From: Escherichia coli
GTDB lineage: Bacteria; Pseudomonadota; Gammaproteobacteria; Enterobacterales; Enterobacteriaceae
Assembly: GCF_002854065.1 (NCBI RefSeq)
Contig: NZ_CP024147.1
Direction: 5' to 3' (one strand)
Length of the DNA: 64,000 bases
The notes under the pieces are model-generated. The model was not told where the DNA came from, searched no databases, and saw only the letters and a program-made list of their open reading frames with translations. This document shows positions 35,937-63,950 of this stretch, in pieces. Positions within the stretch are counted from its first letter, which is position 1. Each line of letters starts with the position of its first letter. A program made the translations under genes and the position numbers.

Positions 35937-37214
35937 TTAGCTTGTCGCTAACTGTACTTGCGGTTCTTCATCTTTAACTTTGATAAGCGTCCACAGCGCA
36001 ATGGCGCCAATAATGTCAAAGAAAGCCAGGGCAATAAAGAACGGCGCGAAGCCGATAATGTGAACGAATGCCCCGATAAACAGGTTGAAAATCAACTGAC
36101 CGCTCCACGCACAGGCTCCTGCCATACCCACTGCGGTAGCTACTTCGTCTTTTTTGAACAGATCGCCACCCAGAGTTGCTGCTACAGTAGAAAGACATTG
36201 ATGCGAGAACGCGCCAATACTAATCAGTAATACGGCAATGTAGGGATTTTCGACAATACTCACCAGGCCAATCGTCATCATAATGACGGCTGCAATAGTG
36301 AAGGTAATTCTTCGTGAGTTAATTAAACTCACGCCGCGATCGTGGAAGAACTTCGCGACAAAACCACTGGCTAAACAGCCGAGATCGCCCAGCAGGAAAG
36401 GCAGCCAGACGAACATGGCAATTTCTTTCAGGCTAAAATGCAGCGTTTCGACGAAGAAAATCGGCACCCAGAAGTTAATGGTTCCCCATGCCGGGTCTGC
36501 GAGAAAACGCGCGATGCCAATCCCCCAGAAATTACGTTGGCTGAGGATATGCTTGATTGACGTTTTTTCTTTCTTATCTGTTTTAAGATGCTGTTCTTGC
36601 CCTGATTCAATATAGTGGCGCTCTTCATCAGAAAGGCGTTTGGCATCTTTCGGATCTTTATAACAAAAGAACCAAAATAAAGCCGCGAGCAAAGCAAGGC
36701 TACCTGAAACAATAAACGCAAATTGCCAGCTATGAAACATAATGCACCAGGCAATCAACGGTGGAGCAAGCATCGCGCCGAGTGAGGTGCCCATATTGAA
36801 AACACCTGTCGCCACGCCACGCTCTTTTGCCGGGAACCATGTTGATGCGGTTTTTACACCCGCCGGAATTGCCGACGCTTCGCTGAAACCCATCAGGGCG
36901 CGCATAAATGCCAGACCTGACCACGTTCCGGTTAGTGCATGGCCCATTGTCGCCAGGCCCCAAATTGCGGCACATATCGCAAAACTTAACTTCAGACCCA
37001 CGGTATCAATAAAGAAGCCCATTACCGGTTGCCCTAATGTATAGGCCAACTGGAATGCACTGACAATCCATGAATATTGCTCTTTAGTTATTCCGGTTGT
37101 CTCCATAATCGTTGGAGCCGCAATACCTAACGCCGTTCTGTCCAGATAATTGATTACAGTGATAAAGCATACGAGGGCAATCATATGCCACCGGTAATTC
37201 GGTAATGACTCCAA
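35937..37214 (-). CDS. MFS transporter, anion:cation symporter (ACS) family, ExuT/GudP-like; 5' end abuts IS1 (track start codon TTG lies inside the IS1 terminus; first native in-frame ATG gives MIALVCF...)
   Basis: 425-aa ORF with ~12 predicted TM segments and ACS-family sequence character (resemblance to ExuT from memory); not at this position in K-12 as I recall. Confidence 0.75.
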   Translation of the reverse strand: MESLPNYRWHMIALVCFITVINYLDRTALGIAAPTIMETTGITKEQYSWIVSAFQLAYTLGQPVMGFFIDTVGLKLSFAICAAIWGLATMGHALTGTWSGLAFMRALMGFSEASAIPAGVKTASTWFPAKERGVATGVFNMGTSLGAMLAPPLIAWCIMFHSWQFAFIVSGSLALLAALFWFFCYKDPKDAKRLSDEERHYIESGQEQHLKTDKKEKTSIKHILSQRNFWGIGIARFLADPAWGTINFWVPIFFVETLHFSLKEIAMFVWLPFLLGDLGCLASGFVAKFFHDRGVSLINSRRITFTIAAVIMMTIGLVSIVENPYIAVLLISIGAFSHQCLSTVAATLGGDLFKKDEVATAVGMAGACAWSGQLIFNLFIGAFVHIIGFAPFFIALAFFDIIGAIALWTLIKVKDEEPQVQLATS

Positions 37215-37215
37215 C

Positions 37216-37719
37216 TTATTGATAGTGTTTTATGTTCAGATAATGCCCGATGACTTTGTCATGCAGCTCCACCGATTTTGAGAACGACAGCGACTTCCGT
37301 CCCAGCCGTGCCAGGTGCTGCCTCAGATTCAGGTTATGCCGCTCAATTCGCTGCGTATATCGCTTGCTGATTACGTGCAGCTTTCCCTTCAGGCGGGATT
37401 CATACAGCGGCCAGCCATCCGTCATCCATATCACCACGTCAAAGGGTGACAGCAGGCTCATAAGACGCCCCAGCGTCGCCATAGTGCGTTCACCGAATAC
37501 GTGCGCAACAACCGTCTTCCGGAGCCTGTCATACGCGTAAAACAGCCAGCGCTGGCGCGATTTAGCCCCGACGTATCCCCACTGTTCGTCCATTTCCGCG
37601 CAGACGATGACGTCACTGCCCGGCTGTATGCGCGAGGTTACCGACTGCGGCCTGAGTTTTTTAAATGGCGGAAAATCGTGTTGAGGCCAACGCCCATAAT
37701 GCGGGCGGTTGCCCGGCAT
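37216..37719 (-). CDS. insB: IS1 transposase InsB (expressed as InsAB' by -1 frameshift)
   Basis: 167-aa [61 protein letters not shown]. Confidence 0.95.
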
Positions 37720-37913
37720 CCAACGCCATTCATGGCCATATCAATGATTTTCTGGTGCGTACCGGGTTGAGAAGCGGTGTAAGTGAACTGCAGTTGCCAT
37801 GTTTTACGGCAGTGAGAGCAGAGATAGCGCTGATGTCCGGCAGTGCTTTTGCCGTTACGCACCACCCCGTCAGTAGCTGAACAGGAGGGACAGCTGATAG
37901 AAACAGAAGCCAC
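37638..37913 (-). CDS. insA: IS1 protein InsA (transposition inhibitor / N-terminal part of transposase)
   Basis: 91-aa [94 protein letters not shown]. Confidence 0.95.
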
Positions 37914-37971
37914 TGGAGCACCTCAAAAACACCATCATACACTAAATCAGTAAGTTGGCAGCATCACCCAT

Positions 37972-38610
37972 CTACTGCGCACGAATAAAACTGCCATCCG
38001 GCTGGCGGGTAAACAGGACCTGTTGATTATTCCCCGTATCAATAGTTAAGCCCGTCACCACGCCGCTGGCGTTCTGGCGGATTTTCACCATCTGCCCGTT
38101 TTGCAAATTACTCAGCGGCTTACCCGCGCCTTCTACCTGCGCCATTGCATAGACATCGGTAGCGGGCAGTCCGTGGTCGCGGAACAGCTGCGCCATCGTT
38201 TTACCGGGTTCGACACGGTAAGAGCGCCATTGATTATCAATTCCGCTATCTGGCTGGAATGGTTGTGTTTGGGTAGTTTGCGGCTGTTCTTCTGGCTGGC
38301 CTTCCTGTATAGGTTCTGGAGCGACCGGAGCCACCTGATCAGGATCATTTTGTGGTGTGACTAATTGCGCCCGCAGCTGTTCTTCTGTCGGCGGTTGTGA
38401 TTGCGACTGAATATCTAACTGCGCTTCACGCGTCACCACCGGCGCGTTGGGCGTATCATCAGATGGAAGCAGAAATCCGACCACCAATATAATGGCGGCA
38501 ATAATGATCCCCCGACGATGCATCGGCGGCAGCGGGTCCATGAAGCGAAAATTGTCCGGCGCGTGCCAGACTTTCTCCAGGGTTGGTTTTAGTTCAAAGC
38601 GCCCGGGCAT
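37972..38610 (-). CDS. ytfB: Cell-division protein YtfB (OapA / LysM-like domain)
   Basis: Track ORF 37972..38646; start MPGRFELKPTLEKVWHAPDNFRFMD; Pro/Gln-rich linker; stop codon 3 nt from IS1 end. Confidence 0.9.
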   Translation of the reverse strand: MPGRFELKPTLEKVWHAPDNFRFMDPLPPMHRRGIIIAAIILVVGFLLPSDDTPNAPVVTREAQLDIQSQSQPPTEEQLRAQLVTPQNDPDQVAPVAPEPIQEGQPEEQPQTTQTQPFQPDSGIDNQWRSYRVEPGKTMAQLFRDHGLPATDVYAMAQVEGAGKPLSNLQNGQMVKIRQNASGVVTGLTIDTGNNQQVLFTRQPDGSFIRAQ

Positions 38611-38828
38611 GGTTTCCTCCTGCTCCGCGTCTTGTTCCTCAATCATAGCCTATGAATAAGCTAACGCTATGATGTCCGTGGTAAACCCGCCTTTATTATA
38701 TTCATACGGGATATTGCTATTGTTTCTTTTTCCCCGGGATTTGTCATCATTCCTGCGACAAAGTTTTACCCAAAGAAGTGTGGCTGATATGCTGCCCGCT
38801 ACTTTTATACCCTAAGAAAGGAAATACG

Positions 38829-39449
38829 ATGACCACCCCAACTTTTGACACCATCGAAGCGCAAGCAAGCTACGGCATTGGTTTACAGGTAGGCCAACAA
38901 CTGAGTGAATCTGGCCTGCAAGGGCTGCTGCCGGAGGCGCTGGTGGCTGGTATTGCAGATGCGCTGGAAGGCAAACATCCGGCTGTTCCGGTTGATGTGG
39001 TGCATCGCGCGCTGCGTGAAATCCACGAACGCGCCGATGCCGTTCGTCGTCAGCGTTTCCAGGCGATGGCTGCCGAAGGTGTGAAATATCTTGAAGAAAA
39101 TGCCAAAAAAGAAGGTGTGAACAGCACCGAATCTGGCCTGCAATTCCGCGTGATCAACCAGGGTGAAGGCGCAATTCCGGCACGTACTGACCGCGTTCGT
39201 GTTCATTACACCGGTAAACTGATCGACGGCACCGTGTTTGACAGCTCCGTTGCTCGTGGTGAACCCGCTGAATTCCCGGTTAATGGCGTGATCCCTGGCT
39301 GGATTGAAGCACTGACTCTGATGCCGGTAGGTTCTAAATGGGAACTGACTATCCCGCAGGAACTGGCCTATGGCGAGCGCGGCGCTGGCGCATCCATCCC
39401 TCCGTTCAGCACCCTGGTGTTTGAAGTCGAGCTGCTGGAAATCCTCTAA
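38829..39449 (+). CDS. fklB: FKBP-type peptidyl-prolyl cis-trans isomerase FklB
   Basis: Track ORF 38778..39449; start [22 protein letters not shown]; 206 aa. Confidence 0.95.
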
Positions 39450-39750
39450 GCAGCGTATTCTGTTCCCCTCGAGCCAGAGGGGAGCAGGCATTTAGCAATA
39501 AACCCTTCAGTTTGCCAATCGGCGATATTTTGTGTTGCAAACGCTCCGTAAGCGTGTATTTTTGTGAGCTGTTTCGCGTTATCACCGTGATATGACACTC
39601 ACTTTAAACATAAAATTAACATTAGATCTAAATCTTAGTATTCATCCCACGTATTGTTTCCTAATATCGATGAGTCCCGATACAGATTCGTCGTATTATA
39701 GACTGACTAAAGGCCGCAGAGCCTGAACAACACAGACAGGAAGAAAAAAC

Positions 39751-41163
39751 ATGGTAGATCAGGTAAAAGTCGTTGCCGATGATCAGGCTCCGGCTGAACA
39801 GTCGCTACGGCGCAATCTCACAAACCGGCATATTCAGCTTATTGCCATTGGCGGCGCCATTGGTACGGGGTTGTTTATGGGATCCGGTAAAACAATCAGC
39901 CTTGCCGGGCCGTCGATCATTTTCGTTTATATGATCATCGGTTTTATGCTCTTTTTCGTGATGCGGGCAATGGGGGAATTGCTGCTTTCGAATCTGGAAT
40001 ACAAATCTTTTAGTGACTTCGCTTCCGATTTATTAGGGCCGTGGGCAGGATATTTCACTGGCTGGACTTATTGGTTCTGCTGGGTGGTTACCGGTATGGC
40101 GGACGTGGTTGCCATCACGGCTTATGCGCAGTTCTGGTTTCCGGGGCTATCTGACTGGGTCGCCTCGTTGGCGGTGATAGTGCTGTTGCTGACCCTGAAC
40201 CTCGCCACCGTGAAAATGTTCGGTGAGATGGAGTTCTGGTTTGCGATGATCAAAATCGTCGCCATCGTGTCGTTGATTGTCGTCGGCCTGGTCATGGTGG
40301 CGATGCACTTTCAGTCACCGACTGGTGTGGAAGCGTCATTTGCGCATTTGTGGAATGACGGCGGCTGGTTCCCGAAAGGCTTAAGTGGCTTCTTTGCCGG
40401 ATTCCAGATAGCGGTTTTCGCTTTCGTGGGGATTGAGCTGGTAGGTACTACTGCTGCGGAAACCAAAGATCCAGAGAAATCACTGCCGCGTGCAATTAAC
40501 TCTATTCCGATCCGCATCATTATGTTCTACGTCTTCGCGCTGATTGTGATTATGTCCGTGACGCCGTGGAGTTCGGTAGTCCCGGATAAAAGCCCGTTTG
40601 TTGAACTGTTCGTGTTGGTGGGGCTGCCTGCTGCTGCCAGCGTGATCAACTTTGTGGTGCTGACGTCTGCGGCTTCTTCCGCTAACAGTGGCGTCTTCTC
40701 TACCAGTCGCATGCTGTTTGGTCTGGCGCAGGAAGGTGTTGCACCGAAAGCGTTCGCTAAACTCTCTAAACGCGCAGTACCCGCGAAAGGGCTGACCTTC
40801 TCTTGTATCTGTCTGCTCGGCGGCGTGGTGATGTTGTACGTGAATCCAAGCGTGATTGGCGCGTTCACGATGATCACGACGGTTTCCGCGATTCTGTTTA
40901 TGTTTGTCTGGACGATTATCCTTTGCTCATACCTTGTGTATCGCAAACAGCGTCCGCACCTGCATGAGAAGTCAATCTACAAGATGCCGCTCGGCAAGCT
41001 GATGTGCTGGGTATGTATGGCGTTCTTTGTGTTCGTCATCGTGCTGCTGACGCTGGAAGATGACACCCGCCAGGCTCTGCTGGTTACCCCACTGTGGTTT
41101 ATCGCGCTGGGGCTGGGCTGGTTGTTTATTGGTAAGAAGCGGGCTGCTGAACTGCGGAAATAA
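39751..41163 (+). CDS. cycA: D-serine/D-alanine/glycine:H+ symporter CycA (APC family)
   Basis: 470-aa ORF MVDQVKVVADDQAPAEQSLRRNLTNRHIQLIAIGGAIGTGLF. Confidence 0.96.
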   Translation: MVDQVKVVADDQAPAEQSLRRNLTNRHIQLIAIGGAIGTGLFMGSGKTISLAGPSIIFVYMIIGFMLFFVMRAMGELLLSNLEYKSFSDFASDLLGPWAGYFTGWTYWFCWVVTGMADVVAITAYAQFWFPGLSDWVASLAVIVLLLTLNLATVKMFGEMEFWFAMIKIVAIVSLIVVGLVMVAMHFQSPTGVEASFAHLWNDGGWFPKGLSGFFAGFQIAVFAFVGIELVGTTAAETKDPEKSLPRAINSIPIRIIMFYVFALIVIMSVTPWSSVVPDKSPFVELFVLVGLPAAASVINFVVLTSAASSANSGVFSTSRMLFGLAQEGVAPKAFAKLSKRAVPAKGLTFSCICLLGGVVMLYVNPSVIGAFTMITTVSAILFMFVWTIILCSYLVYRKQRPHLHEKSIYKMPLGKLMCWVCMAFFVFVIVLLTLEDDTRQALLVTPLWFIALGLGWLFIGKKRAAELRK

Positions 41164-41207
41164 CCGCATTATCATGCTGGATGGCGCAATGCCATCCAGC
41201 TTTTAGA

Positions 41208-41870
41208 TTACTCACCCGCCAGCGCGCGTGGGAACAGTACATTGTTTTCCAGACTGATGTGATCCATCAGGTCATCAATCAGTTCATTAATGCCGTTATA
41301 CATCGCTTTCCAGGTGGTGCAGGCTTCTGGCGGCGGTGTGACGTTATTGGTAGTGTGTTTGATCACTTCCAGCAGTTCGCCCGCTTCATCGTGCTCGCTT
41401 TCCATTACGCTGATTGGCCCCATTGCCTGGCTGCCCATGCCTTGTTTGATCATCGGGAAGAGGATCTGCTCTTCTTTCATCATGTGGCTGGAAAGCTCTT
41501 CATGCAGCATGGTCAGGTATTTTGTCAGCCCTTTTGGCACGCTCGGTTTGTCGGCGTGAACGCGCTCGACTTTAGTCGCTTGCAGGATCAGCTCCGGCAG
41601 TTGCTCGCGGTGACGATCGTGGTAGCGCACGATGATATGGTCGATGATTTCTGCCAGCGGGGCGCTACGCCAGTCTTTCTCAATCGGTTGTTCAGCAAGC
41701 TTTGCCAGCTCAGCTTCAATGACCTCAACATCCAGTTCTTTACGTGCCGCCGCACGCGCCAGCGTTTGCTTACCGCCGCAGCAGTAATCCATATCATATT
41801 TACGAAACAGAGCCGAAGCGCGAGGGATAGAGAGCGCCAGTTCACCTAAAGGTTGGTCGCGATAAGCCAT
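41208..41870 (-). CDS. ytfE: Iron-sulfur cluster repair di-iron protein YtfE (RIC)
   Basis: 220-aa [36 protein letters not shown]; hemerythrin-like. Confidence 0.95.
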
Positions 41871-41977
41871 AGCTGATACCTCATTCTTAATAAGATAAGA
41901 TGTATTTTAAATGCATCTTTAAGGCAAATGCTATAACCCTTACGTAGCAGAGGCTTATTTAACTCACTGCCAGTATG

Positions 41978-42952
41978 TCAACTTTCTGAGACAGATTCAG
42001 TTAAAGGCTTTTCCGGTTTTGCTCTGACTGCAATGACCACGCCAACCACTAACAGCGCGATACCGCTCAGCGTCATCAGCGGCGGCATTTGCTGGCGTAT
42101 CAAAAAGGTGTACAGCAAACCTGCCAGTGTTTCGAAAACGATCAGCGGCCCGAGAATCACTGTCGGTAATCGCTGGCTGGCGACGTTCCAGCAGAGTGCG
42201 CCAACCCATGAGCAAAGCACGGCTATCGCAACCATCAGACTAATAAACACCAGCGGACGGGGGCCAAAAGGTAAGGAGAAGTCCGGCGTTTGTATATTCA
42301 GCCAGTAACAGGCGACGAGATAGCCGATGAGAGAAACCGGCAGCGTGACCAGCGCCTGCGCCGTCGCCCACATCATCGGATGTTTGTCGGGATTTTCCCG
42401 CAGCCAGCGGGCGTTGCGCAGGGCATACCATGCCCAGCAGACCACGGAAACTAACGCTAGCACGATGCCAGAGGTATAACGTGCCCAGTCAAAATCGGGG
42501 AGTCCGTGGTTTAACTCAGCAATATTCACACACGCCAGGCCGATGCCAATACAAATCAGTGCCGGGGCGAGTTTTCCCCACGCGAGTTTGCCGTCTCGCT
42601 GGCTATAAAGCAGATTGGCAAAGACAGGAATGACCACCGGCAGGGTGCCAATAATCATCGTAGAAACAGGCGCGCCAGTACGTTGAATGGCACTGGCAAG
42701 GCAGAAGTAATAGATGAGGTTGCCCATCATAGTGAGCATCAAGGCGGTAAGCCAGTCGCGACGCGCCAACTGACGCAGACGCACGCGTCCCAGCCAGGCA
42801 ATGGGTAGCGCAATTAACCCTAACGCCAGATAACGCCCCATCGACTGCAACATCGCCGGGTATTCCGGCACGATCAACGGCCCGACAAAAATAAGCCCCC
42901 ACATCAACCCTGCTAACAGGGCGTACAGCACGCCGCTAATCATTACTGGCAT
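41978..42952 (-). CDS. ytfF: Inner-membrane DMT/EamA-family transporter YtfF
   Basis: 324-aa track ORF, 10 TM; start codon choice (MPVMISG vs MISG) uncertain. Confidence 0.88.
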   Translation of the reverse strand: MPVMISGVLYALLAGLMWGLIFVGPLIVPEYPAMLQSMGRYLALGLIALPIAWLGRVRLRQLARRDWLTALMLTMMGNLIYYFCLASAIQRTGAPVSTMIIGTLPVVIPVFANLLYSQRDGKLAWGKLAPALICIGIGLACVNIAELNHGLPDFDWARYTSGIVLALVSVVCWAWYALRNARWLRENPDKHPMMWATAQALVTLPVSLIGYLVACYWLNIQTPDFSLPFGPRPLVFISLMVAIAVLCSWVGALCWNVASQRLPTVILGPLIVFETLAGLLYTFLIRQQMPPLMTLSGIALLVVGVVIAVRAKPEKPLTESVSES

Positions 42953-43051
42953 CCATTGGTCTGTCAGAAGAAACGTTCAGGAAGCAGACATGATTGCTCC
43001 CGGCATCCCGTCATTATCAGAGAGGATGCGGGAGGATGCCACTTTAATTAA

Positions 43052-43915
43052 CTATTTATTAACATTAAAAAGATGGCTTACGCTTTCGGCTAACGTTGTC
43101 GTTGGGCGGCCAATCAATTTGCTCAGCGTTTTGCTGTCATCAAACAGACCGCCTTTCGATGCGCCAACGTCAGAATCCGCCAGCATATCCGCCAGTCCGT
43201 CAGGCAGGCCAACGCTTTTCAGCGCCGCAGCGAAATCGATTTCGCTCAGATTTTGATAGGTAACCTGTTTGCCGCTCTGTTTGGTCAGCTCTGCCGCTAA
43301 CTGTGTCAACGTCCAGGCACTATCGCCCGCCAGCTCGTAAACCTTGCCTTCGTGACCGGCTTCGCTAATCACGCGTGCCGCAGCTGCCGCATAATCTGCC
43401 CGCGTTGCCGAGGCAATTTTGCCATCGCCCGCGGCACCGATAAATACGCCGTGCTCCAGTGCTGCCGGGGCGCTGGCGAGATAGTTTTCGGTGTACCAGC
43501 CGTTGCGCAGCAGGGTGTAAACGATGCCAGAATCAGCCAACATTTTCTCCGTCTCGATGTGCTCATCGGCGAGGCCGAGCGGAGATTTATCCGCGTGAAG
43601 CAGACTGGTATAAGCGATAAATTTCACGCCAGCCGTCTTTGCGGCATTAATAACATTACGATGCTGCGGGGCACGTTGACCCACTTCGCTGGAAGAGATC
43701 AGCAGTAGTTTTTCCACTCCCTGAAGTGCAGATGTCAGTGCGGCTTCATCGCCGTAGTCAGCCTGACGCACGGTAATGCCTTGTGCTGCCAGGGCCTGGG
43801 CTTTTGCCGGATTACGAACGATAGCCACTATTTGTTGGCTGGCAGGAACCGTTTTCATCAAGGATTCAATAACATAGTGACCAAGTTGGCCAGTGGCACC
43901 AGTAATAGCGATCAT
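43052..43915 (-). CDS. qorB: NAD(P)H:quinone oxidoreductase QorB (YtfG), NmrA-like
   Basis: 287-aa ORF MIAITGATGQLGHYVIESL (Rossmann GxxGxxG). Confidence 0.93.
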   Translation of the reverse strand: MIAITGATGQLGHYVIESLMKTVPASQQIVAIVRNPAKAQALAAQGITVRQADYGDEAALTSALQGVEKLLLISSSEVGQRAPQHRNVINAAKTAGVKFIAYTSLLHADKSPLGLADEHIETEKMLADSGIVYTLLRNGWYTENYLASAPAALEHGVFIGAAGDGKIASATRADYAAAAARVISEAGHEGKVYELAGDSAWTLTQLAAELTKQSGKQVTYQNLSEIDFAAALKSVGLPDGLADMLADSDVGASKGGLFDDSKTLSKLIGRPTTTLAESVSHLFNVNK

Positions 43916-44003
43916 GGGAAGTCTCCATCGTTTTGTCTTGTGTTTAAATACGCTAACACCTAAACTTACTTTTAGTAAGTACGTACAAAAAGGTAAGTAT
44001 GAA

Positions 44004-44384
44004 ATGAGTCAGGTTAGCCTGTCGCAACAACTGAAAGAGGGTAATCTCTTTGCGGAACAGTGCCCGTCGCGCGAGGTGTTGAAACACGTCACCAGCCGTT
44101 GGGGGGTATTGATTCTGGTGGCGCTACGCGAAGGTACTCATCGCTTTAGCGACCTGCGGCGCAAAATCGGTGGGGTGAGTGAAAAGATGCTTGCGCAGTC
44201 GTTACAGGCGTTAGAACAGGATGGTTTTCTTAACCGTATCGCGTATCCGGTGGTGCCGCCGCATGTGGAATACAGCCTCACGCCGCTGGGCGAGCAGGTG
44301 AGCGAAAAGGTTGCTGCACTGGCGGACTGGATTGAGTTGAATTTGCCCGAGGTGTTGGCGGTGCGGGATGAACGTGCGGCATAA
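44004..44384 (+). CDS. ytfH: HxlR-family transcriptional regulator YtfH
   Basis: Track ORF 43893..44384; start MSQVSLSQQLKEGNLFAEQCPSREVLKHVTSRWGVLIL; 126 aa; divergent from qorB. Confidence 0.9.
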   Translation: MSQVSLSQQLKEGNLFAEQCPSREVLKHVTSRWGVLILVALREGTHRFSDLRRKIGGVSEKMLAQSLQALEQDGFLNRIAYPVVPPHVEYSLTPLGEQVSEKVAALADWIELNLPEVLAVRDERAA

Positions 44385-44385
44385 C

Positions 44386-44485
44386 TGCCGGATGCGCTGA
44401 GCTTATCTGGTCTACGGTGCATGGCTTGTAGGGCGGATAAGATGCGCCAGCATCGCATCCGACAAAAGTGCCGGATGCGGTTGAT
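44386..44485. repeat. REP/BIME palindromic elements
   Basis: CTGCCGGATGCGCTGAGCTTATCTGG..GTAGGGCGGATAAGATGCGCCAGCATCGCATCCGACA..GTGCCGGATGCGG. Confidence 0.8.
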
Positions 44486-44511
44486 GATTTATAGGTCGAA
44501 AAAGAAGTGTT

Positions 44512-46484
44512 TTACTTACTCAAATCCACCTGATAAATCGCAAACCCGATATCATCGGTCGCGACTTTATTCATCGGATATTGCCCTTTCTCTTTAATAA
44601 ACGCTGCGGCTTTATCTGACGGGGAAGTTTCGAAACGGATATCCAGTTTCTTATCGCCGGCTATCGGTGCTAAACGCCAGTTGTTATCTGCCGCCGGGTG
44701 AATTTCCCCCGCACGTTTCGACTCATCAGCAATCCACGCTGCCAGCACCGAGCGGTTCTCATCCGGTGAAGCAAAAGCGATATGGCTGTCGCCCGTACCG
44801 GCAAATTTGCCGCCGTAAGCGCGATAGTTATTGGTGGCAACGAGGAACATGGCGTTCGGATCAATCGGCTTGCCGTTAAAGGTCAGGTTCTTAATCCTTT
44901 CCGCATTGGCATTAACCATCTGGCACTCGCCGTCATAACGGGCAGGCTGGGTAACATCAATCTGATAATTCACACCATCAATCACATCAAAGTTATAGGT
45001 GCGGAAACCATCCCAGTTGATGAGTGACTGTGGTTTCGTGTTGTCAGGATCAATCTGGTTAAACTGTCCGGCGGAGCACTCCAGCCACTCTTTCACCTCT
45101 TTACCGCTGGCTTTCACCACAATCAGCGTATTGGGGTAGAGATAAAGATCGGCGGCATTACGGAAGGTCAACTGGCCTTTTTCCACCTCCACATAGCTTG
45201 CCGGATCATTTTTGCGACCACCAACTTTAAACGGTGCAGCAGCTGAAAGCACCGGCAGTTTTGCCAGATCCGGATCGTCCTGAATGTAATGCTCGACATA
45301 CGCTTTTTGCGCGTTGTTCACCACCTGCACGGTCGGATCGTCCTGCACCAGCGCCAGATAGCTATACATATTGTCGGCGGATTTACCGATTGGCTTGCTG
45401 ACGAACTGGCGTGTGGCATCGTGATCGGCTTTGAGTGTTTCTACCAGCTTGCTGTCTTCCGCCGCGAGGGATTTTTTATTGGCGATGTCGTAAATCGGCC
45501 GTGCTTCCGCTTTCGCCTGCGTCACCTGCCATTTACCGCTGTTATTACTGAGTTGTAAGTCGACCACCCCAAGATGATCGCCCCACATGCCCGGCATTAC
45601 CGCCGGAACACCATTCAGCGTGCCTTTCGCGATATCAGCCCCTTCGATACGATATCAGCCCCTTCGATATCAGCAAAATCTTTACCTGGGAAAACGGCGT
45701 GAGCATGGCCAAACATAATGGCGTTAACGCCAGGAATTTCACTGAGGTAATAAACTGAGTTTTCCGCCATCACTTTATACGGATCGGCAGATAGCCCGGA
45801 ATGCGCCAGAACGACAACGACATCGGCACCTTTCTCGCGCATTTCAGGCACGTATTTGCGCACGGTTTCGGTAATATCATTCACCGTCACTTTTCCGGAT
45901 AAATTAGCTTTATCCCAGCCCATGATTTGCGGCGGCACGACGCCAATATAGCCAATCTTCAGCGTCTGTTTTTTTCCGTCTTTATCGACCACTTCGGTAT
46001 CTTTAATTAAATACGGTGTAAACATTGGCTGTTTGGTTCTGGCGTCAATGACGTTGGCATTTACATAAGGGAATTTCGCTCCCGCCAACGCATTTTTCAG
46101 GTAATCCAGACCGTAGTTAAATTCATGATTGCCGAGTGTACCGACCGTATAATCCAGCGTATTCAGCGCCTTATAAACCGGATGAACATCACCTGCTTTT
46201 AATCCTTTCGCCGATATGTAATCGGCCAGCGGACTCCCCTGAATCAAATCGCCGTTATCGACCAGTACGCTGTTTTTCACTTCATTGCGGGCATCGTTAA
46301 TCAGGCTTGCCGTACGTACCAGTCCGAATTTTTCCGTGGCGGTGTCTTTGTAATAATCGAAATCCATCATGTTGCTATGCAGATCAGTGGTTTCCATGAT
46401 ACGTAGATCGACCGTCGCTGCATTCACACTGGCGGCAATCAGCGTGGCCAGGAGCGTTGCGCTAAACTTAATCATCAGGGACAT
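44512..46484 (-). pseudogene. cpdB: cpdB (periplasmic 2',3'-cyclic-nucleotide 2'-phosphodiesterase / 3'-nucleotidase) split by a 20-bp tandem duplication
   Basis: N-terminal ORF 45615..46484 (signal peptide [36 protein letters not shown], ends ...[19 protein letters not shown]) and C-terminal ORF 44512..45597 ([15 protein letters not shown]...) are adjacent and co-directional; removing one 20-bp copy rejoins them in frame. Confidence 0.85.
45630..45669. repeat. Perfect 20-bp tandem duplication CGATATCAGCCCCTTCGATA x2 inside cpdB
   Basis: Read directly: 45630-45649 and 45650-45669 identical. Confidence 0.9.
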
Positions 46485-46664
46485 CCTTTTATCATCGGGA
46501 ATACGAAAGAAAAGGGAGAATAAACGCCTTACTTATAGAACAGTGAAGAATGCCACAATTTTACGCTTTGAAAATGATGACACTATCACAGTTGGCGCAT
46601 TCATTAACGATAGGGTATAAGTAAAACAATAAGTTAACACCGCTCACAGAGACGAGGTGGAGAA

Positions 46665-47405
46665 ATGTTAGATCAAGTATGCCAGCTTGCACGGAATGCA
46701 GGCGATGCCATTATGCAGGTCTACGACGGGACGAAACCGATGGACGTCGTCAGCAAAGCGGACAATTCTCCGGTAACGGCAGCGGATATTGCCGCTCACA
46801 CCGTTATCATGGACGGTTTACGTACGCTGACACCGGAGATTCCGGTCCTTTCTGAAGAAGATCCTCCCGGTTGGGAAGTCCGTCAGCACTGGCAGCGTTA
46901 CTGGCTGGTGGACCCGCTGGATGGCACTAAAGAGTTTATTAAACGTAATGGCGAATTCACCGTTAACATTGCGCTCATTGACCATGGCAAACCGATTTTA
47001 GGTGTGGTGTATGCGCCGGTAATGAACGTAATGTACAGCGCGGCAGAAGGCAAGGCCTGGAAAGAAGAGTGCGGTGTGCGCAAGCAGATTCAGGTCCGCG
47101 ATGCGCGCCCGCCGCTGGTGGTTATCAGCCGTTCCCATGCAGATGCGGAGCTGAAAGAGTATCTGCAACAGCTTGGCGAACATCAGACCACGTCCATCGG
47201 CTCTTCGCTGAAATTCTGCCTGGTGGCGGAAGGGCAGGCGCAGCTGTACCCGCGCTTCGGACCAACGAATATTTGGGATACCGCCGCTGGTCATGCTGTG
47301 GCTGCAGCTGCCGGAGCGCACGTTCATGACTGGCAGGGTAAACCGCTGGATTACACTCCGCGCGAGTCGTTCCTGAATCCGGGATTCAGAGTGTCTATTT
47401 ATTAA
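46665..47405 (+). CDS. cysQ: 3'(2'),5'-bisphosphate nucleotidase CysQ
   Basis: 246-aa [25 protein letters not shown]; inositol-monophosphatase motifs (WLVDPLDGT). Confidence 0.95.
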
Positions 47406-47952
47406 TTAATTTATGCAGCAGGTCCATCACTTGCTGCACCTCTTCCTGTGTGAGCGCCCCGTCTTTGGCCCATTGCACGCGACCATCCTTATCCAGCACC
47501 ACTACAGCGGAACTTTCTTCATCCAGCTGCCAGGCACCGCGCGCGACGCCATTGCTATCGACAATAAACTGCGACCAGGGATAAAGCTTTTTATTACTCT
47601 CCAGACTGCTGCGCACAAACATCCCTGAACCCGGAATCGCGTCGTCGGTGTTAACAATGGTGGTGGTCTGGTAGCGATCGTGCGGTAACTTCGCTGATTT
47701 AATCGCTTCAATCAGCGTCGCGTTTTTCTCTTTTGCAGAGGTGCGACCAGCAATATGTTGCAGTACTCGCACTTTTCCCACTAACTGTGCGCTGTTCCAG
47801 GTTTTGTAGCTAAACTGATCTTTATCAAGCACCAACTCGCCTCGATCGGTAATGCCAATCGGCGGCACTCGCTGACCGGTTTCGAACTGATGTGCGGAAG
47901 CCATCATCGGCAACAGCAGGCAGGTGAGTGCCAGAATCTTGCTTAGGGTCAT
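47395..47952 (-). CDS. ytfJ: Periplasmic protein YtfJ (DUF1107)
   Basis: 185-aa ORF with signal peptide [20 protein letters not shown]; convergent 11-nt overlap with cysQ. Confidence 0.9.
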
Positions 47953-48276
47953 GGTGTTTCCTTCTTATGATATGCAGGTGATCCGACCACTTGGGTCTGA
48001 GTTTTAATCATATGTGCTATTTATCGAATTTCCCGCAAGTGTGATGCCAGTTTGCGGTCAAGCGCACAAATCATATGAAAAATGAATGCTTATACTGAAG
48101 ACCGCGCTTCGGTAAAAAGATAATTCTGAATAATTGTAACCTTTAGGTAAAAAAAGTTATACGCGGTGGAAACATTGCCCGGATAGTCTATAGTCACTAA
48201 GCATTAAAATTTGCGCCTCATAATAGTTGGGCCGATTGTGGCACCGCACAGGCGTAATACTCAGCAGGAGATAACA

Positions 48277-48483
48277 ATGAAAATTTTCCAACGGTACAAC
48301 CCACTTCAGGTGGCGAAGTACGTAAAGATCCTGTTCCGTGGACGGTTATACATCAAGGACGTTGGCGCTTTTGAATTTGATAAGGGTAAGATTCTTATCC
48401 CAAAAGTGAAGGATAAGCTGCATTTGTCAGTGATGTCCGAAGTTAACCGTCAGGTTATGCGTCTGCAAACAGAGATGGCTTAA
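48277..48483 (+). CDS. ytfK: Small protein YtfK (DUF1107)
   Basis: Track ORF 48211..48483; start [38 protein letters not shown]; 68 aa. Confidence 0.88.
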
Positions 48484-48544
48484 CCAAAGTGCTATGCAGT
48501 AATAAGACGGCTCCTGATTCAGGAGCCGTTGATGTTTCTGGGGG

Positions 48545-49888
48545 TTACGCGACGCTTTCTTCTTTATCTTTAGCGTCAGGCAGTTTTGGCGAAAGGGCGG
48601 TGGCCTTGCTGTCGATCCGGGTCACCAGCAGCTGGTCGATGCGGTAGTTATCGATATCCACCACTTCAAATTTGTAGCCGGCGAATTTCACCGAATCGGT
48701 GCGTTTCGGGATCTTACGCAGCATAAACATCATAAAGCCGCCGATGGTTTCGTAGTTGCCCGACTGCGGGAACTCGTCAATATCCAGCACGCGCATGACG
48801 TCGTCAATTGGGGTGCCGCCGTCAATCAGCCATGAGTTCTCATCACGGGCGACAATCTGCTCTTCCAGCCCCTGGCCGACCAGATCGCCCATCAGCGTGG
48901 TCATCACGTCGTTGAGGGTGATGATCCCCACTACCAGCGCGTACTCGTTCATGATCACCGCGAAGTCTTCACCTGCGGTTTTAAAACTTTCCAACGCCTC
49001 TGAAAGGGTTAACGTATCCGGCACAATCAGCGTGTTGCGAATTTGTACGCCGCTGTTCAGTGCCAGGCTTTGGTTAGCCAGCACGCGGTTCAGCAGGTCT
49101 TTAGAATCGACATAACCGATGATGTGGTCAATATCTTCATTACAGACGAGGAACTTAGAGTGCGGATGTTCCGCCACTTTATTCTTCAGACTTTGCTCAT
49201 CTTCGTGGAGATCAAACCAAATCACGTTTTCACGCGGTGTCATTGACGACGGAACGGTACGGGATTCCAGCTCAAAGACGTTTTCAATCAGCTCGTGTTC
49301 CTGTTTACGTAACACGCCCGCCAGCGCACCGGCTTCCACTACCGCGTAGATGTCATCAGAAGTGATGTCATCTTTACGTACCATTGGCAGTTTGAAAATA
49401 CGGAAGATTATGTTCGCCAGTCCGTTGAAGAACCACACCAGCGGGGTGCAAACGTACAGGCAGAAGCGCATCGGGTTGATGATACGCAAAGCGACAGCTT
49501 CTGGCGCAATCATACCGATGCGTTTCGGGGTTAAATCCGCAAACAGGATAAACATGCCAGTCACTAACGAGAAAGAGAGAATAAAGCTCAGTTGCTCAGA
49601 GAGCTCTGCCGACATATAGCGGGAGAACAGGCTGTGAAAAGCTGGAGAAAATGCCGCATCACCGACGATACCGCCGAGAATCGCCACTGCGTTCAGACCG
49701 ATTTGGACCACGGTAAAGAACATGCCGGGATTTTCCTGCATATTCAGAACGCGTTGGGCATTTATATTGCCTTCATCAGCCAGCAGTTTAAGTTTGATTT
49801 TGCGTGAGGCGGCAAGCGAGATCTCGGACATCGAGAAGAACGCACTTACAGCGATCAAGCAGAGTATGACTAAAATACTGTTTAACAT
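48545..49888 (-). CDS. ytfL: Inner-membrane protein YtfL (DUF21/CNNM + CBS pair + CorC_HlyC; UPF0053)
   Basis: 447-aa ORF MLNSILVILCLIAVSAFFSMSEISLAASRKIKLK. Confidence 0.93.
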   Translation of the reverse strand: MLNSILVILCLIAVSAFFSMSEISLAASRKIKLKLLADEGNINAQRVLNMQENPGMFFTVVQIGLNAVAILGGIVGDAAFSPAFHSLFSRYMSAELSEQLSFILSFSLVTGMFILFADLTPKRIGMIAPEAVALRIINPMRFCLYVCTPLVWFFNGLANIIFRIFKLPMVRKDDITSDDIYAVVEAGALAGVLRKQEHELIENVFELESRTVPSSMTPRENVIWFDLHEDEQSLKNKVAEHPHSKFLVCNEDIDHIIGYVDSKDLLNRVLANQSLALNSGVQIRNTLIVPDTLTLSEALESFKTAGEDFAVIMNEYALVVGIITLNDVMTTLMGDLVGQGLEEQIVARDENSWLIDGGTPIDDVMRVLDIDEFPQSGNYETIGGFMMFMLRKIPKRTDSVKFAGYKFEVVDIDNYRIDQLLVTRIDSKATALSPKLPDAKDKEESVA

Positions 49889-50064
49889 ATCTTATCCGAC
49901 CTTTCAGGCCAGATCCTCGGAAGGGGAAGTTGATTAATTTGTGTGAAATACACATTGAAAGCCGATTCGAAGAAAGTGAACCGGCATTTTCAGTGGCTAG
50001 TATAGCGTAAGGTACTGTAAAGTCGCCAGAGGGTTAAAATTCAGACTGCTGATAAATGCAATAC

Positions 50065-50165
50065 TGCCTGATGCGCTATGCCAATCAGGCCTACGCAGTC
50101 CTTGCAATATATTGAATTTGGACGATTTTGTAGGCCTGGTAAGGCGTTTACGCCGCATCTGGCAT
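50065..50165. repeat. REP/BIME palindromic elements
   Basis: GCCTGATGCGCTATGCCAATCAGGCCTAC ... GTAGGCCTGGTAAGGCGTTTACGCCGCATCTGGCA. Confidence 0.8.
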
Positions 50166-50210
50166 AAATAAAGCGCACTTTATCAACAATCTACATTTGT
50201 ACCCGTAACG

Positions 50211-50849
50211 CTATGCTTCCGGTGGCAGACAGACGCCAATTCCGCCAATTCCACAGTAACCATACGGGTTTTTATGCAGATATTGCTGGTGGTCATCTTC
50301 GGCATAATAAAACGGTGTGGCGTTAGCGATTTCCGTGGTGATGTGACGATCATCATCGGCGGCAAGCATCGCCGCCTGAAAACGTTCCAGACTGGCGCGA
50401 GCTGCGGCATCCTGTTCTGGGGTCAGCGGATAAATCGCTGAACGATACTGCGTGCCGTGGTCATTGCCCTGACGCATTCCCTGGGCGGGATCGTGATTCT
50501 CCCAAAATACCTGTAGCAACTGCTCATAGCTGATGACGGAAGGATCGTAAACAATGCGTACCGCTTCGGCATGACCCGTATCACCGGAGCACACTTCCCG
50601 ATAAGTCGGATTTGGCGTATAGCCTCCGGTATAGCCTGCGGCGGTGCTGTAAACGCCGGGTAACTGCCAGAACAGACGCTCCACACCCCAGAAACAACCC
50701 ATCGCAAAAATGGCAATCTCCATTCCGTCAGGTACATTGGTCATTGAGTGACCGTTGACCGCATGCAGCGTGGCTACGGGCATCGGGGTGTTACGTCCAG
50801 GCAGGGCATCGGCGGGGGAAACCAGATGCTTTTTATCAAATAAACTCAT
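50211..50849 (-). CDS. msrA: Peptide methionine-S-sulfoxide reductase MsrA
   Basis: Track ORF 50211..50915; start [22 protein letters not shown]; active-site GCFWG; 212 aa. Confidence 0.96.
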
Positions 50850-51012
50850 GGTGTCGCTCTCCCGAAAATCGGTCATTGGGGTTAAGGTTGTAACAAGAGG
50901 CGTATTTGCACACAATAACCACCGTGAATAGGTCTAAAGTAAAACATAAGAAATATTTGGGGTTTAGTCTGCTTTTTAATCCATATTACTGGATTTTTGT
51001 TAAGCCGTTTAA

Positions 51013-56564
<5,552 letters not shown>

Positions 56565-56947: not shown

Positions 56948-57287
56948 CGATGTATCTCGCGATTTTTTTTTGTAACTTTTCCATCTTTTGCTTTTCTCTC
57001 CGAGCCGCTTTCCATATCTGCAATCGCATAAAAAACTCTGCTGGCGTTCACAAATGTGCAGGGGTAAAACGGGGGCACGCTTTGAACGGTGAGTATGAGT
57101 GAGGTCGGCTAACTTCCAGCAAGTGGCTATGAACAGCAAAATGGTGGTCGGGTTTGCTTGTTCTTACCGTTCAAGCCTTGCAACCGCTGAGAATAATGAT
57201 GGTGGAATAGAGAGTTTATTTATCGCGGGCATAAAAAAACCCTTACTAACCGAAGCCCGGCGTTCAGGGTTATTGCGCTAGAAGAAC

Positions 57288-58127: not shown

Positions 58128-59084
58128 ATGTGGAAACGCTTACTTGTAGTCTCTGCAGTCTCGGCAGCCATGTCGTCTATGGCGTTGGCCGCTCCATTAA
58201 CCGTAGGATTTTCGCAGGTCGGATCGGAATCTGGCTGGCGCGCCGCAGAAACCAATGTGGCGAAAAGTGAGGCCGAAAAACGCGGAATTACGCTGAAAAT
58301 TGCCGATGGTCAGCAAAAGCAGGAAAACCAGATTAAAGCGGTACGTTCCTTCGTCGCGCAAGGGGTGGATGCGATCTTTATCGCTCCGGTGGTTGCGACT
58401 GGTTGGGAACCGGTATTAAAAGAGGCGAAAGATGCCGAAATCCCGGTCTTCTTGCTCGATCGTTCTATTGATGTGAAAGACAAATCTCTCTATATGACCA
58501 CCGTCACTGCCGACAACATTCTCGAAGGCAAGTTGATTGGTGACTGGCTGGTAAAAGAAGTGAATGGCAAACCATGCAACGTGGTGGAGCTGCAGGGCAC
58601 TGTTGGGGCCAGCGTCGCCATTGACCGTAAGAAAGGCTTTGCCGAAGCCATTAAGAATGCGCCAAATATCAAAATTATCCGCTCGCAGTCAGGTGACTTC
58701 ACCCGCAGTAAAGGCAAAGAAGTCATGGAGAGCTTTATCAAAGCGGAAAACAACGGCAAAAACATCTGCATGGTTTACGCCCATAACGACGACATGGTGA
58801 TTGGTGCAATTCAGGCAATTAAAGAAGCGGGCCTGAAACCGGGCAAAGATATTCTGACAGGTTCTATCGACGGCGTACCGGATATCTACAAAGCGATGAT
58901 TGATGGCGAAGCGAACGCCAGTGTTGAACTGACGCCGAATATGGCAGGTCCCGCCTTCGACGCGCTGGAGAAATACAAAAAAGACGGCACCATGCCTGAA
59001 AAGCTGACGCTGACCAAATCCACCCTTTATCTGCCTGATACCGCAAAAGAAGAGTTAGAGAAGAAGAAAAATATGGGGTATTGA
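58128..59084 (+). CDS. ytfQ: Galactofuranose ABC transporter periplasmic binding protein YtfQ
   Basis: 318-aa ORF with signal peptide MWKRLLVVSAVSAAMSSMALAAP. Confidence 0.95.
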   Translation: MWKRLLVVSAVSAAMSSMALAAPLTVGFSQVGSESGWRAAETNVAKSEAEKRGITLKIADGQQKQENQIKAVRSFVAQGVDAIFIAPVVATGWEPVLKEAKDAEIPVFLLDRSIDVKDKSLYMTTVTADNILEGKLIGDWLVKEVNGKPCNVVELQGTVGASVAIDRKKGFAEAIKNAPNIKIIRSQSGDFTRSKGKEVMESFIKAENNGKNICMVYAHNDDMVIGAIQAIKEAGLKPGKDILTGSIDGVPDIYKAMIDGEANASVELTPNMAGPAFDALEKYKKDGTMPEKLTLTKSTLYLPDTAKEELEKKKNMGY

Positions 59085-59092
59085 GGGTTGCT

Positions 59093-59200
59093 ATGCCTGA
59101 TGCCGATTCGTAGGCCGGATAAGGCGCTCGCGCCGCATCCGGCGGTGGTGCGCTGAAGCCTGATGCGACGCTTACCGCGTCTTATCATGCCTACTGGGAG
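59093..59200. repeat. REP/BIME palindromic elements
   Basis: GCCTGATGCCGATTCGTAGGCCGGATAAGGCGCTCGCGCCGCATCCGGCGG ... GCCTGATGCGACGCTTACCGCGTCTTATCATGCCTAC. Confidence 0.8.
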
Positions 59201-59223
59201 CACGCTTTACACCGGGGGAAACC

Positions 59224-60726
59224 ATGACGACTAACCAACACCAGGAGATCCTCCGCACCGAAGGATTAAGTAAATTTTTCCCCGGCGTCAAAGCGTTAGA
59301 CAACGTTGATTTCAGCCTGCGCCGCGGCGAAATCATGGCGCTGCTCGGTGAAAACGGGGCAGGAAAATCAACGCTAATCAAAGCATTAACTGGTGTATAC
59401 CACGCCGATCGCGGCACCATCTGGCTGGAAGGCCAGGCTATCTCACCGAAAAATACCGCCCATGCACAACAACTCGGTATCGGCACCGTCTATCAGGAAG
59501 TAAACCTGCTACCCAATATGTCGGTCGCTGATAATCTATTTATAGGCCGCGAACCCAAACGCTTCGGCCTTCTACGCCGCAAAGAGATGGAAAAGCGCGC
59601 CACCGAACTGATGGCATCTTACGGTTTCTCCCTCGACGTGCGCGAACCGCTCAACCGCTTTTCAGTCGCGATGCAGCAAATCGTCGCTATTTGCCGGGCT
59701 ATCGATCTCTCTGCCAAAGTGCTGATCCTCGATGAACCCACCGCCAGTCTCGACACCCAGGAAGTGGAGTTACTGTTTGACCTGATGCGTCAGTTGCGCG
59801 ATCGCGGCGTCAGCCTGATTTTTGTCACTCACTTTCTCGATCAGGTCTATCAGGTCAGCGATCGGATCACCGTCTTACGCAACGGCAGTTTCGTAGGCTG
59901 TCGGGAAACGTGCGAGCTACCGCAGATCGAACTGGTAAAAATGATGCTGGGGCGCGAGCTGGATACCCACGCGCTACAGCGTGCCGGGCGAACATTGTTG
60001 AGCGACAAACCCGTTGCCGCGTTCAAAAATTACGGCAAAAAAGGAACGATCGCACCGTTTGATCTCGAAGTACGCCCCGGCGAGATCGTCGGTCTGGCTG
60101 GATTGCTGGGATCAGGACGTACCGAAACCGCCGAAGTGATCTTCGGTATCAAACCTGCTGACAGCGGCACGGCGTTGATCAAAGGCAAACCGCAAAACCT
60201 GCGATCGCCACATCAGGCTTCGGTACTGGGCATTGGCTTCTGCCCGGAAGACAGGAAAACCGATGGCATCATCGCTGCCGCCTCGGTGCGGGAAAATATC
60301 ATCCTCGCTCTCCAGGCCCAGCGCGGCTGGCTACGTCCCATTTCCCGCAAAGAACAGCAAGAGATTGCCGAACGCTTTATCCGCCAGCTTGGCATTCGCA
60401 CACCTTCAACTGAACAACCGATTGAATTTCTCTCTGGCGGCAATCAGCAAAAAGTGTTGCTTTCACGTTGGCTACTGACCCGACCGCAATTTCTGATCCT
60501 TGATGAGCCAACTCGCGGCATTGATGTTGGTGCCCACGCCGAGATCATCCGCCTGATTGAAACGCTATGCGCCGATGGTCTGGCGCTGCTGGTGATCTCC
60601 TCCGAACTGGAAGAACTGGTGGGCTATGCCGACCGGGTGATCATCATGCGCGATCGCAAACAGGTGGCGGAGATCCCGCTGGCAGAGCTTTCCGTTCCGG
60701 CGATCATGAACGCCATTGCGGCGTAA
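59224..60726 (+). CDS. ytfR: Galactofuranose ABC transporter ATP-binding protein YtfR (two fused ABC domains)
   Basis: 500-aa ORF; two Walker A sites (GENGAGKST, GLLGSGRTE) and two signature motifs. Confidence 0.95.
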   Translation: MTTNQHQEILRTEGLSKFFPGVKALDNVDFSLRRGEIMALLGENGAGKSTLIKALTGVYHADRGTIWLEGQAISPKNTAHAQQLGIGTVYQEVNLLPNMSVADNLFIGREPKRFGLLRRKEMEKRATELMASYGFSLDVREPLNRFSVAMQQIVAICRAIDLSAKVLILDEPTASLDTQEVELLFDLMRQLRDRGVSLIFVTHFLDQVYQVSDRITVLRNGSFVGCRETCELPQIELVKMMLGRELDTHALQRAGRTLLSDKPVAAFKNYGKKGTIAPFDLEVRPGEIVGLAGLLGSGRTETAEVIFGIKPADSGTALIKGKPQNLRSPHQASVLGIGFCPEDRKTDGIIAAASVRENIILALQAQRGWLRPISRKEQQEIAERFIRQLGIRTPSTEQPIEFLSGGNQQKVLLSRWLLTRPQFLILDEPTRGIDVGAHAEIIRLIETLCADGLALLVISSELEELVGYADRVIIMRDRKQVAEIPLAELSVPAIMNAIAA

Positions 60727-60736
60727 GGAGAACAGT

Positions 60737-61762
60737 GTGATGCCTCAATCTCTCCCGGACACTACGCCGCCGAAAAGGCGCTTTCGCTGGCCAACGGGAA
60801 TGCCGCAGCTGGCGGCACTGTTGCTGGTGCTGCTGGTCGATAGCCTGGTGGCCCCGCATTTCTGGCAGGTGGTGCTCCAGGATGGGCGTTTATTCGGTAG
60901 CCCCATAGACATTCTTAACCGTGCGGCCCCCGTTGCGCTGTTGGCTATCGGAATGACGCTGGTGATCGCAACAGGTGGGATTGATCTCTCCGTGGGGGCG
61001 GTGATGGCTATCGCCGGAGCCACAACGGCTGCGATGACGGTCGCGGGATTCAGCCTGCCGATTGTTTTGTTAAGCGCCCTGGGCACTGGCATCCTGGCGG
61101 GATTGTGGAACGGCATACTGGTAGCGATCCTCAAAATTCAGCCGTTTGTTGCCACCCTGATCCTGATGGTCGCCGGGCGCGGCGTGGCGCAACTGATCAC
61201 CTCCGGACAGATCGTCACGTTTAACTCGCCGGATCTCTCATGGTTTGGCAGTGGATCGCTGTTGTTCCTGCCAACGCCGGTCATTATCGCGGTGCTGACG
61301 CTTATCCTGTTCTGGCTGTTGACCCGCAAAACGGCGCTGGGGATGTTTATCGAAGCCGTTGGTATCAACATTCGGGCGGCAAAAAATGCCGGGGTAAACA
61401 CGCGGATCATCGTCATGCTTACCTACGTGTTGAGCGGGCTGTGTGCGGCGATTGCGGGCATTATCGTGGCGGCGGATATTCGCGGTGCCGATGCCAATAA
61501 CGCCGGGTTATGGCTGGAGCTGGACGCCATTCTCGCGGTGGTTATTGGCGGCGGATCGCTGATGGGCGGACGTTTTAACCTACTGCTTTCGGTGGTGGGG
61601 GCGCTGATTATTCAGGGGATGAACACCGGAATTTTGCTTTCGGGCTTTCCGCCAGAGATGAACCAGGTTGTAAAAGCGGTGGTGGTTCTTTGCGTGCTGA
61701 TTGTCCAGTCGCAACGCTTTATCAGTCTGATTAAAGGAGTACGTAGCCGTGATAAAACGTAA
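60737..61762 (+). CDS. ytfT: Galactofuranose ABC transporter permease YtfT
   Basis: Track ORF 60716..61762; likely start GTG/ATG at 60737-60742 (MMPQSLPDTTPPKRRFRW); ~341 aa. Confidence 0.92.
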   Translation: MMPQSLPDTTPPKRRFRWPTGMPQLAALLLVLLVDSLVAPHFWQVVLQDGRLFGSPIDILNRAAPVALLAIGMTLVIATGGIDLSVGAVMAIAGATTAAMTVAGFSLPIVLLSALGTGILAGLWNGILVAILKIQPFVATLILMVAGRGVAQLITSGQIVTFNSPDLSWFGSGSLLFLPTPVIIAVLTLILFWLLTRKTALGMFIEAVGINIRAAKNAGVNTRIIVMLTYVLSGLCAAIAGIIVAADIRGADANNAGLWLELDAILAVVIGGGSLMGGRFNLLLSVVGALIIQGMNTGILLSGFPPEMNQVVKAVVVLCVLIVQSQRFISLIKGVRSRDKT

Positions 61763-62744: not shown

Positions 62745-62776
62745 AAACGCCTCTCCGTGTGGAGAGGCGCAGGAGA

Positions 62777-63775: not shown

Positions 63776-63950
63776 AAAACTTTCCCTGCAATGTTTATGG
63801 AGTAAAGCGACCGCAACAATCTTAACAAATAATCTCAATGTTGCGCTCAGGTGAATCGCGCCAGCAAATTGCGGATTATCCTGAAATGCGTTTCTCACTT
63901 GCCCGACATATGCGTAAAATGAGCGGCAGATTAAAAAAGGATAGTGACGT

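Follow-up and report, generated by a model that had tools for sequence, protein, structure and literature searches.

The cpdB gene, encoding the 2′,3′-cyclic-nucleotide 2′-phosphodiesterase/3′-nucleotidase, lies in the analyzed stretch of Escherichia coli DNA (64,000 nucleotides, hereafter the window) in the order ytfH-cpdB-cysQ, as in K-12 (b4212-b4214). Alignment with K-12 cpdB (b4213) revealed 52 substitutions and a 20-nt insertion that consists of a second copy of a 20-bp unit (Table 1). When one copy is deleted, a single open frame is recovered, which measures 1953 nt when counted from an upstream ATG and 647 codons when counted from the start used in K-12 (MIKF), in agreement with the initial annotation of this DNA, which had predicted that removal of one copy would restore a cpdB of about that length. 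The repaired protein is identical to K-12 CpdB at 640 of the 647 residues; since the seven substitutions are at residues 87, 97, 305, 393, 471, 472, and 514, there is no difference from K-12 within the 19-residue signal sequence. Its scores are 1239.8 bits with the TIGR01390 equivalog (cut-off, 883) and 1202.3 bits with NF006938 (cut-off, 486), with both profiles covered end to end, and Pfam assigns residues 24-260 to Metallophos and residues 357-549 to 5_nucleotid_C. The repaired gene thus has the NCBIfam score, the position between ytfH and cysQ, and the two-domain architecture with an N-terminal signal peptide of a cpdB ortholog. Synteny, the TIGR01390 score, and the low number of differences from K-12 bear out the earlier assignment of the gene as cpdB, but the N-terminal domain, which had been called a 5′-nucleotidase domain, is the metallophosphoesterase catalytic domain (Pfam Metallophos).

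Direct reading of positions 45620-45679 (...CCTTTCG CGATATCAGCCCCTTCGATA CGATATCAGCCCCTTCGATA TCAGCAAAAT...) shows the unit twice head to tail, in two perfect copies. Tandem Repeats Finder reports 45630-45669 as an array of period 20 with 2.0 copies, 100% matches, and 0 indels, and an exact string search of the whole window places the 20-mer CGATATCAGCCCCTTCGATA at 45630 and 45650 only; the perfect back-to-back duplication that had been noted here is thereby confirmed. The extra copy is absent from E203449, OkiPb01684, and 2018-10-1CC, and also from K-12, the comparison that had been proposed as a check. By our own arithmetic, the number of perfect 20-bp tandem doublets expected by chance in a 64-kb sequence is ~64000/4^20, or ~6e-8. 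The base preceding the array (45629) is G, whereas the unit ends in A, and the base following it (45670) is T, whereas the unit starts with C. Because the flanking bases mismatch the unit ends, the array can be neither extended nor rotated; its placement is therefore unique and the duplication blunt, with 0 bases of junction microhomology. The doublet is the sole such repeat within a coding region of the window, in which Tandem Repeats Finder detected only two other arrays, a tRNA-Gly triplet and a weak 15-bp array. The former, three tRNA-Gly(GCC) genes in tandem at 1647-1947 (glyV, glyX, and glyY of K-12), is the only strong one and is ordinary.

On the minus strand, the insertion shifts the cpdB frame after Ile275 (K-12 numbering) and leads through 11 aberrant codons to a stop at 45615-45617. 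The uninterrupted frame encoding both domains that a functional cpdB requires is thus missing from the window. What remains are two ORFs, and the ORF list agrees with the initial annotation on both: an N-terminal one of 289 codons that ends at this stop and a separate C-terminal one of 361 codons. In the 5′ fragment, the signal peptide and the rest of native residues 1-275 are followed by 11 frame-shifted residues, and the fragment matches positions 1-258 of TIGR01390 with 493 bits. The 3′ fragment, which begins 18 nt past the stop of the 5′ ORF, comprises the final ~68 N-domain residues and the whole 5_nucleotid_C domain and matches profile positions 266-626 with 714 bits. Both scores are below the cut-off of 883.

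Table 1. Features of the cpdB locus in the window.
Feature	Position	Strand	Remarks
cpdB pseudogene (2′,3′-cyclic-nucleotide 2′-phosphodiesterase/3′-nucleotidase)	44512..46475	-	1964 nt, compared with 1944 nt in K-12
5′ fragment ORF	45615..46484	-	289 aa from the upstream ATG; 286 aa from the K-12 start at 46475
3′ fragment ORF	44512..45597	-	361 aa; starts at internal Met287; no signal peptide
Copy 1 of the 20-bp unit	45630..45649	-	CGATATCAGCCCCTTCGATA on the + strand; the 20 nt that intact cpdB alleles lack
Copy 2 of the 20-bp unit	45650..45669	-	Identical to copy 1
Third occurrence of the 10-bp motif CGATATCAGC	45665..45674		Other occurrences at 45630-45639 and 45650-45659

To search for the doublet in other genomes, we used a 50-bp junction query (5 + 40 + 5) that has no 28-mer in common with the single-copy allele and so cannot seed there. 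The query matched 145 of 5,426 complete E. coli genomes (~2.7%), 143 of them perfectly, and always at one place per genome and on the chromosome; as a few strains are present under two accessions, the number of distinct carrier strains is slightly lower than 145. The RefSeq annotation was examined for eight carrier genomes, among them CP53, 2013C-4991, 97.3, PD4, 027_SK3, PK6, and FACU 2024, and it labels cpdB "frameshifted" in every one of them. The exact 286-aa truncated product, aberrant tail included, is encoded on at least 1,000 public contigs, and so is the 361-aa fragment (on at least 1,000); source names of these records include [quoted passage not shown]. An assembly or sequencing artefact in the source genome therefore has a negligible probability in our view. 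Indel errors do occur in long-read assemblies, a general point with nothing specific to this site, but a clean 20-bp duplication is an atypical signature of read error, and recovery of the identical junction in 145 independently assembled complete genomes, together with the presence of the product on contigs from several sources, effectively refutes this explanation. In strain 97.3, cpdB is moreover the sole pseudogene among 66 features over the region homologous to the window, which argues against poor assembly. The doublet inside an intact cpdB ORF had been named as the observation that would contradict a frameshift; no genome of this kind was found, and the near-identical E203449 and OkiPb01684, which are intact, have a single copy.

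Carriers were obtained from pigs, poultry, cattle, humans, wildlife, and water on several continents, with many pig and poultry isolates among them. According to published typing, 14EC001 is ST793 and 14EC007 and 14EC017 are ST301 (PMC6206212), so that the allele spans more than one sequence type and includes clinical isolates of both. Both ST301 isolates have eae; in 14EC001, other LEE genes (tir, espA, and espF) are present (PMC6206212). One carrier, FACU 2024, has an additional 1-bp deletion inside copy 1 (CGAT-TCAGC), equivalent to window position 45634, for a net gain of 19 nt; either ongoing pseudogene decay or an error in the sequencing of that genome could account for it.

We consider it very probable that the doublet represents a real loss-of-function allele of cpdB that is passed on vertically and derives from one 20-bp tandem duplication, its single origin and the loss of activity being the inferred parts of this reading. 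The duplication would have arisen once, on one E. coli haplotype of the cycA-cpdB-tamA region. CpdB consists of an N domain (residues 20-354) and a C domain (residues 355-647) (PMC7922932), and the crystallized N domains of homologues (3JYF and 5EQV) align to CpdB residues 16-354. With the frame shifted after Ile275, the exported product would end 79 residues before the end of the catalytic N domain and would lack the entire substrate-binding C domain. The downstream 361-codon ORF, if translated, would give a product that lacks a signal peptide and stays in the cytoplasm, so that the two pieces of CpdB could not reassemble in the periplasm. Judging from the predicted products, carriers are expected to lack periplasmic 2′,3′-cNMP phosphodiesterase, 3′-nucleotidase, and cyclic-dinucleotide phosphodiesterase activities.

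Both ORFs might alternatively be made and provide CpdB activity, either together or through the N fragment alone. The ORFs are separated by only 18 nt, both are still open in the carriers examined, and the metal-binding and catalytic motifs (GNHE and GHAH) all precede residue 275 and are thus contained in the first ORF. In addition, the complete isolated N domain retains 2′,3′-cNMP phosphodiesterase activity, although it loses the 3′-nucleotidase and dinucleotide activities (PMC7922932), and some residual activity of the 275-residue fragment may therefore persist. Nevertheless, the break falls inside the N domain, at residue 275 of 20-354, and not at the domain linker; the missing signal peptide of the second ORF would place the halves in different compartments; and the isolated C domain is inactive (PMC7922932). 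A young pseudogene would be expected to have open frames in any case, and one carrier has acquired an additional deletion. A functional split gene is accordingly very improbable, and we favor loss of function.

How the duplication formed was examined by comparison with the single-copy allele. Alignment shows that the native allele contains CGATATCAGC twice with a 15-bp period. The initial annotation had put forward a native short direct repeat as a plausible substrate for slippage; the repeat is real, but slippage as the mechanism is unsupported, because its period is 15 bp and not 20, and slippage on it would give in-frame changes of 15 bp in either direction rather than a gain of 20. Among 5,426 complete E. 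coli genomes, there are no length variants at the native repeat, that is, neither a 15-bp in-frame duplication allele nor a 15-bp deletion allele of cpdB was found. Slipped-strand duplication would have a unit bounded by a short repeat (X-Y-X to X-Y-X-Y-X), whereas here neither junction has any microhomology. A query that only three copies of the 20-mer could seed matched nothing in the collection. Hairpin-assisted duplication was considered on account of two GATATC palindromes whose 6-bp stem is nearly coextensive with the unit; the predicted fold is weak and unremarkable (-4.5 and -6 kcal/mol, z ~ -1.4, with 14-17 of 200 shuffles folding equally well), and this candidate was rejected. The footprint of an excised insertion sequence, in the form of a 20-bp target-site duplication, was also set aside; we know of no E. 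coli insertion sequence that makes 20-bp target duplications.

All carriers have one local haplotype of ~12-20 kb around cpdB, which argues for a single origin of the doublet. Over positions 38000-53000 of the window, only 148 records are at least 99% identical, essentially the carriers and three single-copy strains: on this haplotype, 145 genomes have two copies and three strains have one. Local comparison shows that carriers have positions ~38-59 kb of the window in common, with mosaic blocks of divergence beyond, and in a 15-kb alignment of seven carriers from the USA, China, Cuba, and Switzerland, only 0-2 SNPs were found within 3 kb on either side of the doublet. When the repaired gene was used as the query, E203449 (Mali), OkiPb01684 (Okinawa), and 2018-10-1CC (Viet Nam) were the only single-copy strains on the carrier cpdB haplotype among the matches listed. 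The first two have an intact cpdB. 2018-10-1CC, with a single 20-mer on a sister haplotype, has a 1-bp cpdB deletion of its own, equivalent to window position 46169, and is annotated as "frameshifted"; this is a second, separate inactivation of cpdB in a close relative. The next-closest cpdB alleles are 99.4% identical and very common among the matches listed, and K-12 is an outlier at 97.3%.

Two groups of carriers can be distinguished. Group I (the window, 97.3, and 027_SK3) has T at 45278 and one allele of the msrA-tamA block at 50083-51462, and group II (PK6, CP53, 2013C-4991, and PD4, and most carriers by identity score) has C at 45278 together with the alternative allele of that block. 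The SNP at 45278 is nonsynonymous (Gly393Asp in CpdB), and K-12 and most strains have G393. OkiPb01684 matches group I at every informative site, including the derived T, and apart from the doublet differs from 97.3 by three SNPs across 41.1-59 kb. E203449 matches group II, even at three sites that are present in some but not all carriers of that group. Both doublet states thus occur on both haplotypes, in all four combinations, and this four-gamete conflict, which the SNP at 45278 creates, means that the claim of a single origin requires reversion, recombination, or recurrence. The pattern fits a single gain that was precisely reverted twice, a single gain with a recombined tract of less than 4.8 kb, or two identical gains. 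Two independent identical gains are very unlikely, because the junctions have no microhomology and the doublet occurs on no other haplotype. OkiPb01684 and E203449 could be revertants, recombinants, or ancestral forms.

These single-copy relatives raise the possibility that the doublet is a mutational hotspot or reversible switch, gained and lost repeatedly, with cpdB toggling between OFF and ON within lineages. On this view, the strains with one copy would be precise revertants, or the carrier groups independent gains. Perfect tandem repeats of 20 bp can undergo precise RecA-independent deletion, and the position of one intact single-copy strain close to 97.3 and of the other within the opposite carrier sub-haplotype is what such a switch would produce. 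On the other hand, copy numbers of one and two only were observed, with no triple copy found; the doublet occurs on no other cpdB haplotype among ~5,280 genomes; and the blunt junctions speak against repeated identical gains. The region is also mosaic, so that recombination of a short tract between 45278 and 50083 accounts for the pattern as well, and the further deletion inside copy 1 of one carrier suggests decay rather than toggling. Two copies of a 20-bp unit are, in addition, not the hypermutable simple-sequence tract of a contingency locus. We thus regard a switch as doubtful, though it deserves some weight. Somewhat less probable still is a specific version of it, in which the doublet is a slow reversible OFF switch of a pro-virulence periplasmic nuclease. 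After a single gain, it would have spread in an E. coli lineage that comprises several STs and is largely associated with livestock, and two or more precise reversions (in OkiPb01684 and E203449) would have restored an intact cpdB. If this were true, selection on extracellular 2′,3′-cNMP or cyclic-dinucleotide hydrolysis would alternate between niches. An inherited loss-of-function allele remains our preferred explanation.

The surroundings of cpdB are mosaic as well. Dense SNP blocks (20-66 per kb) between otherwise near-identical strains are found at 39005-41106 (fklB-cycA), 50083-51738 (msrA-tamA), and 59000-63999 (ytfR-ytfT-yjfF), a typical signature of homologous recombination tracts, so that local haplotypes represent the clonal tree poorly. 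Six SNPs (39697, 42596, 43239, 44496, 47943, and 51145) are private to the window in comparison with nine aligned relatives, so that the source strain is identical to none of the complete genomes examined; the nearest genomes are those of the O68:H12 strain 97.3 and of KFu015. An IS1 element at 37201-37968 (InsA ORF, 37638-37913; InsB ORF, 37216-37719; NF033558 match) stands in place of a ~7-kb island that is found in 97.3, CP53, OkiPb01684, and E203449 and encodes a TetR regulator, a 3-ketoacyl-ACP reductase, a sugar-phosphate isomerase, an enoyl-CoA hydratase, a CoA transferase, and an FAD oxidoreductase. The adjacent MFS transporter gene (35937-37214) now starts inside the end of IS1, and the loss of the island looks like an IS1-mediated deletion private to the source strain. 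Relative to K-12, the window also lacks ytfI (~1.2 kb, in the cysQ-ytfJ interval) at 47405-47410 and the chpS-chpB toxin-antitoxin pair (in the ytfP-ppa interval) at 57071-57200, as do the closest relatives.

CpdB is described as promoting the virulence of avian pathogenic E. coli and of Salmonella, and it hydrolyzes cyclic dinucleotides that are sensed by host STING (PMC7922932, PMC9958556). In a tblastn survey, cpdB was absent from only 0.3% of E. coli genomes (PMC9958556). Such a survey is blind to frameshifts, so that this value understates the functional loss of cpdB, to which the doublet allele (2.7%) and insertions of IS elements both contribute. On the evidence of its reading frame, the doublet allele alone probably makes ~2.7% of complete E. 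coli genomes CpdB-null. The allele is already represented in RefSeq as a frameshifted pseudogene and in protein databases as fragments and is therefore not new, and our literature searches found no paper on it. It is an ordinary lineage-specific pseudogene and reveals no new biology, and it can serve as a lineage marker and provides a natural set of knock-outs for testing the role of CpdB.

Compared with its known counterparts, the window allele shares with K-12 cpdB the ytfH/cysQ locus, the 647-codon frame once repaired, and the Metallophos and 5_nucleotid_C domains; it differs by the 20-nt insertion after codon 275, by the premature stop, and by 2.7% divergence at the DNA level. The "frameshifted" cpdB genes of RefSeq (EAH50_RS22110 in CP53, C6P55_RS17165 in 2013C-4991, and IEC98_RS20295 in 97.3) have the identical 40-bp doublet at the same position and on the same haplotype and show no difference at the doublet, the window being set apart by a few private SNPs. 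Other natural inactivations of cpdB in E. coli affect the same gene but are different events at different positions, and none has the doublet. Insertions of IS1, IS3, IS4, IS5, ISVsa5, or ISKpn26 in cpdB were found in at least 29 complete genomes of the common haplotype among the matches listed, indicating that the gene has been lost repeatedly in E. coli. The lacI site with CTGG x3, reportedly recognized as a tandem-repeat frameshift hotspot by Farabaugh and colleagues in 1978, resembles the doublet in that the copy number of a tandem unit causes the frameshift, and precise loss of one cpdB copy would restore the frame. The cpdB unit, in contrast, is 20 bp long and present in two copies, with no natural copy-number series or evidence of high-frequency switching. 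[quoted passage not shown] 2021, PMC7922932) likewise have the catalytic and specificity parts on two polypeptides. They were cut at the 354/355 domain boundary, which left the N domain active, whereas the break in the window allele falls at residue 275 and gives an N domain shortened by 79 residues and extended by 11 aberrant ones and a C-terminal piece that has no export signal.
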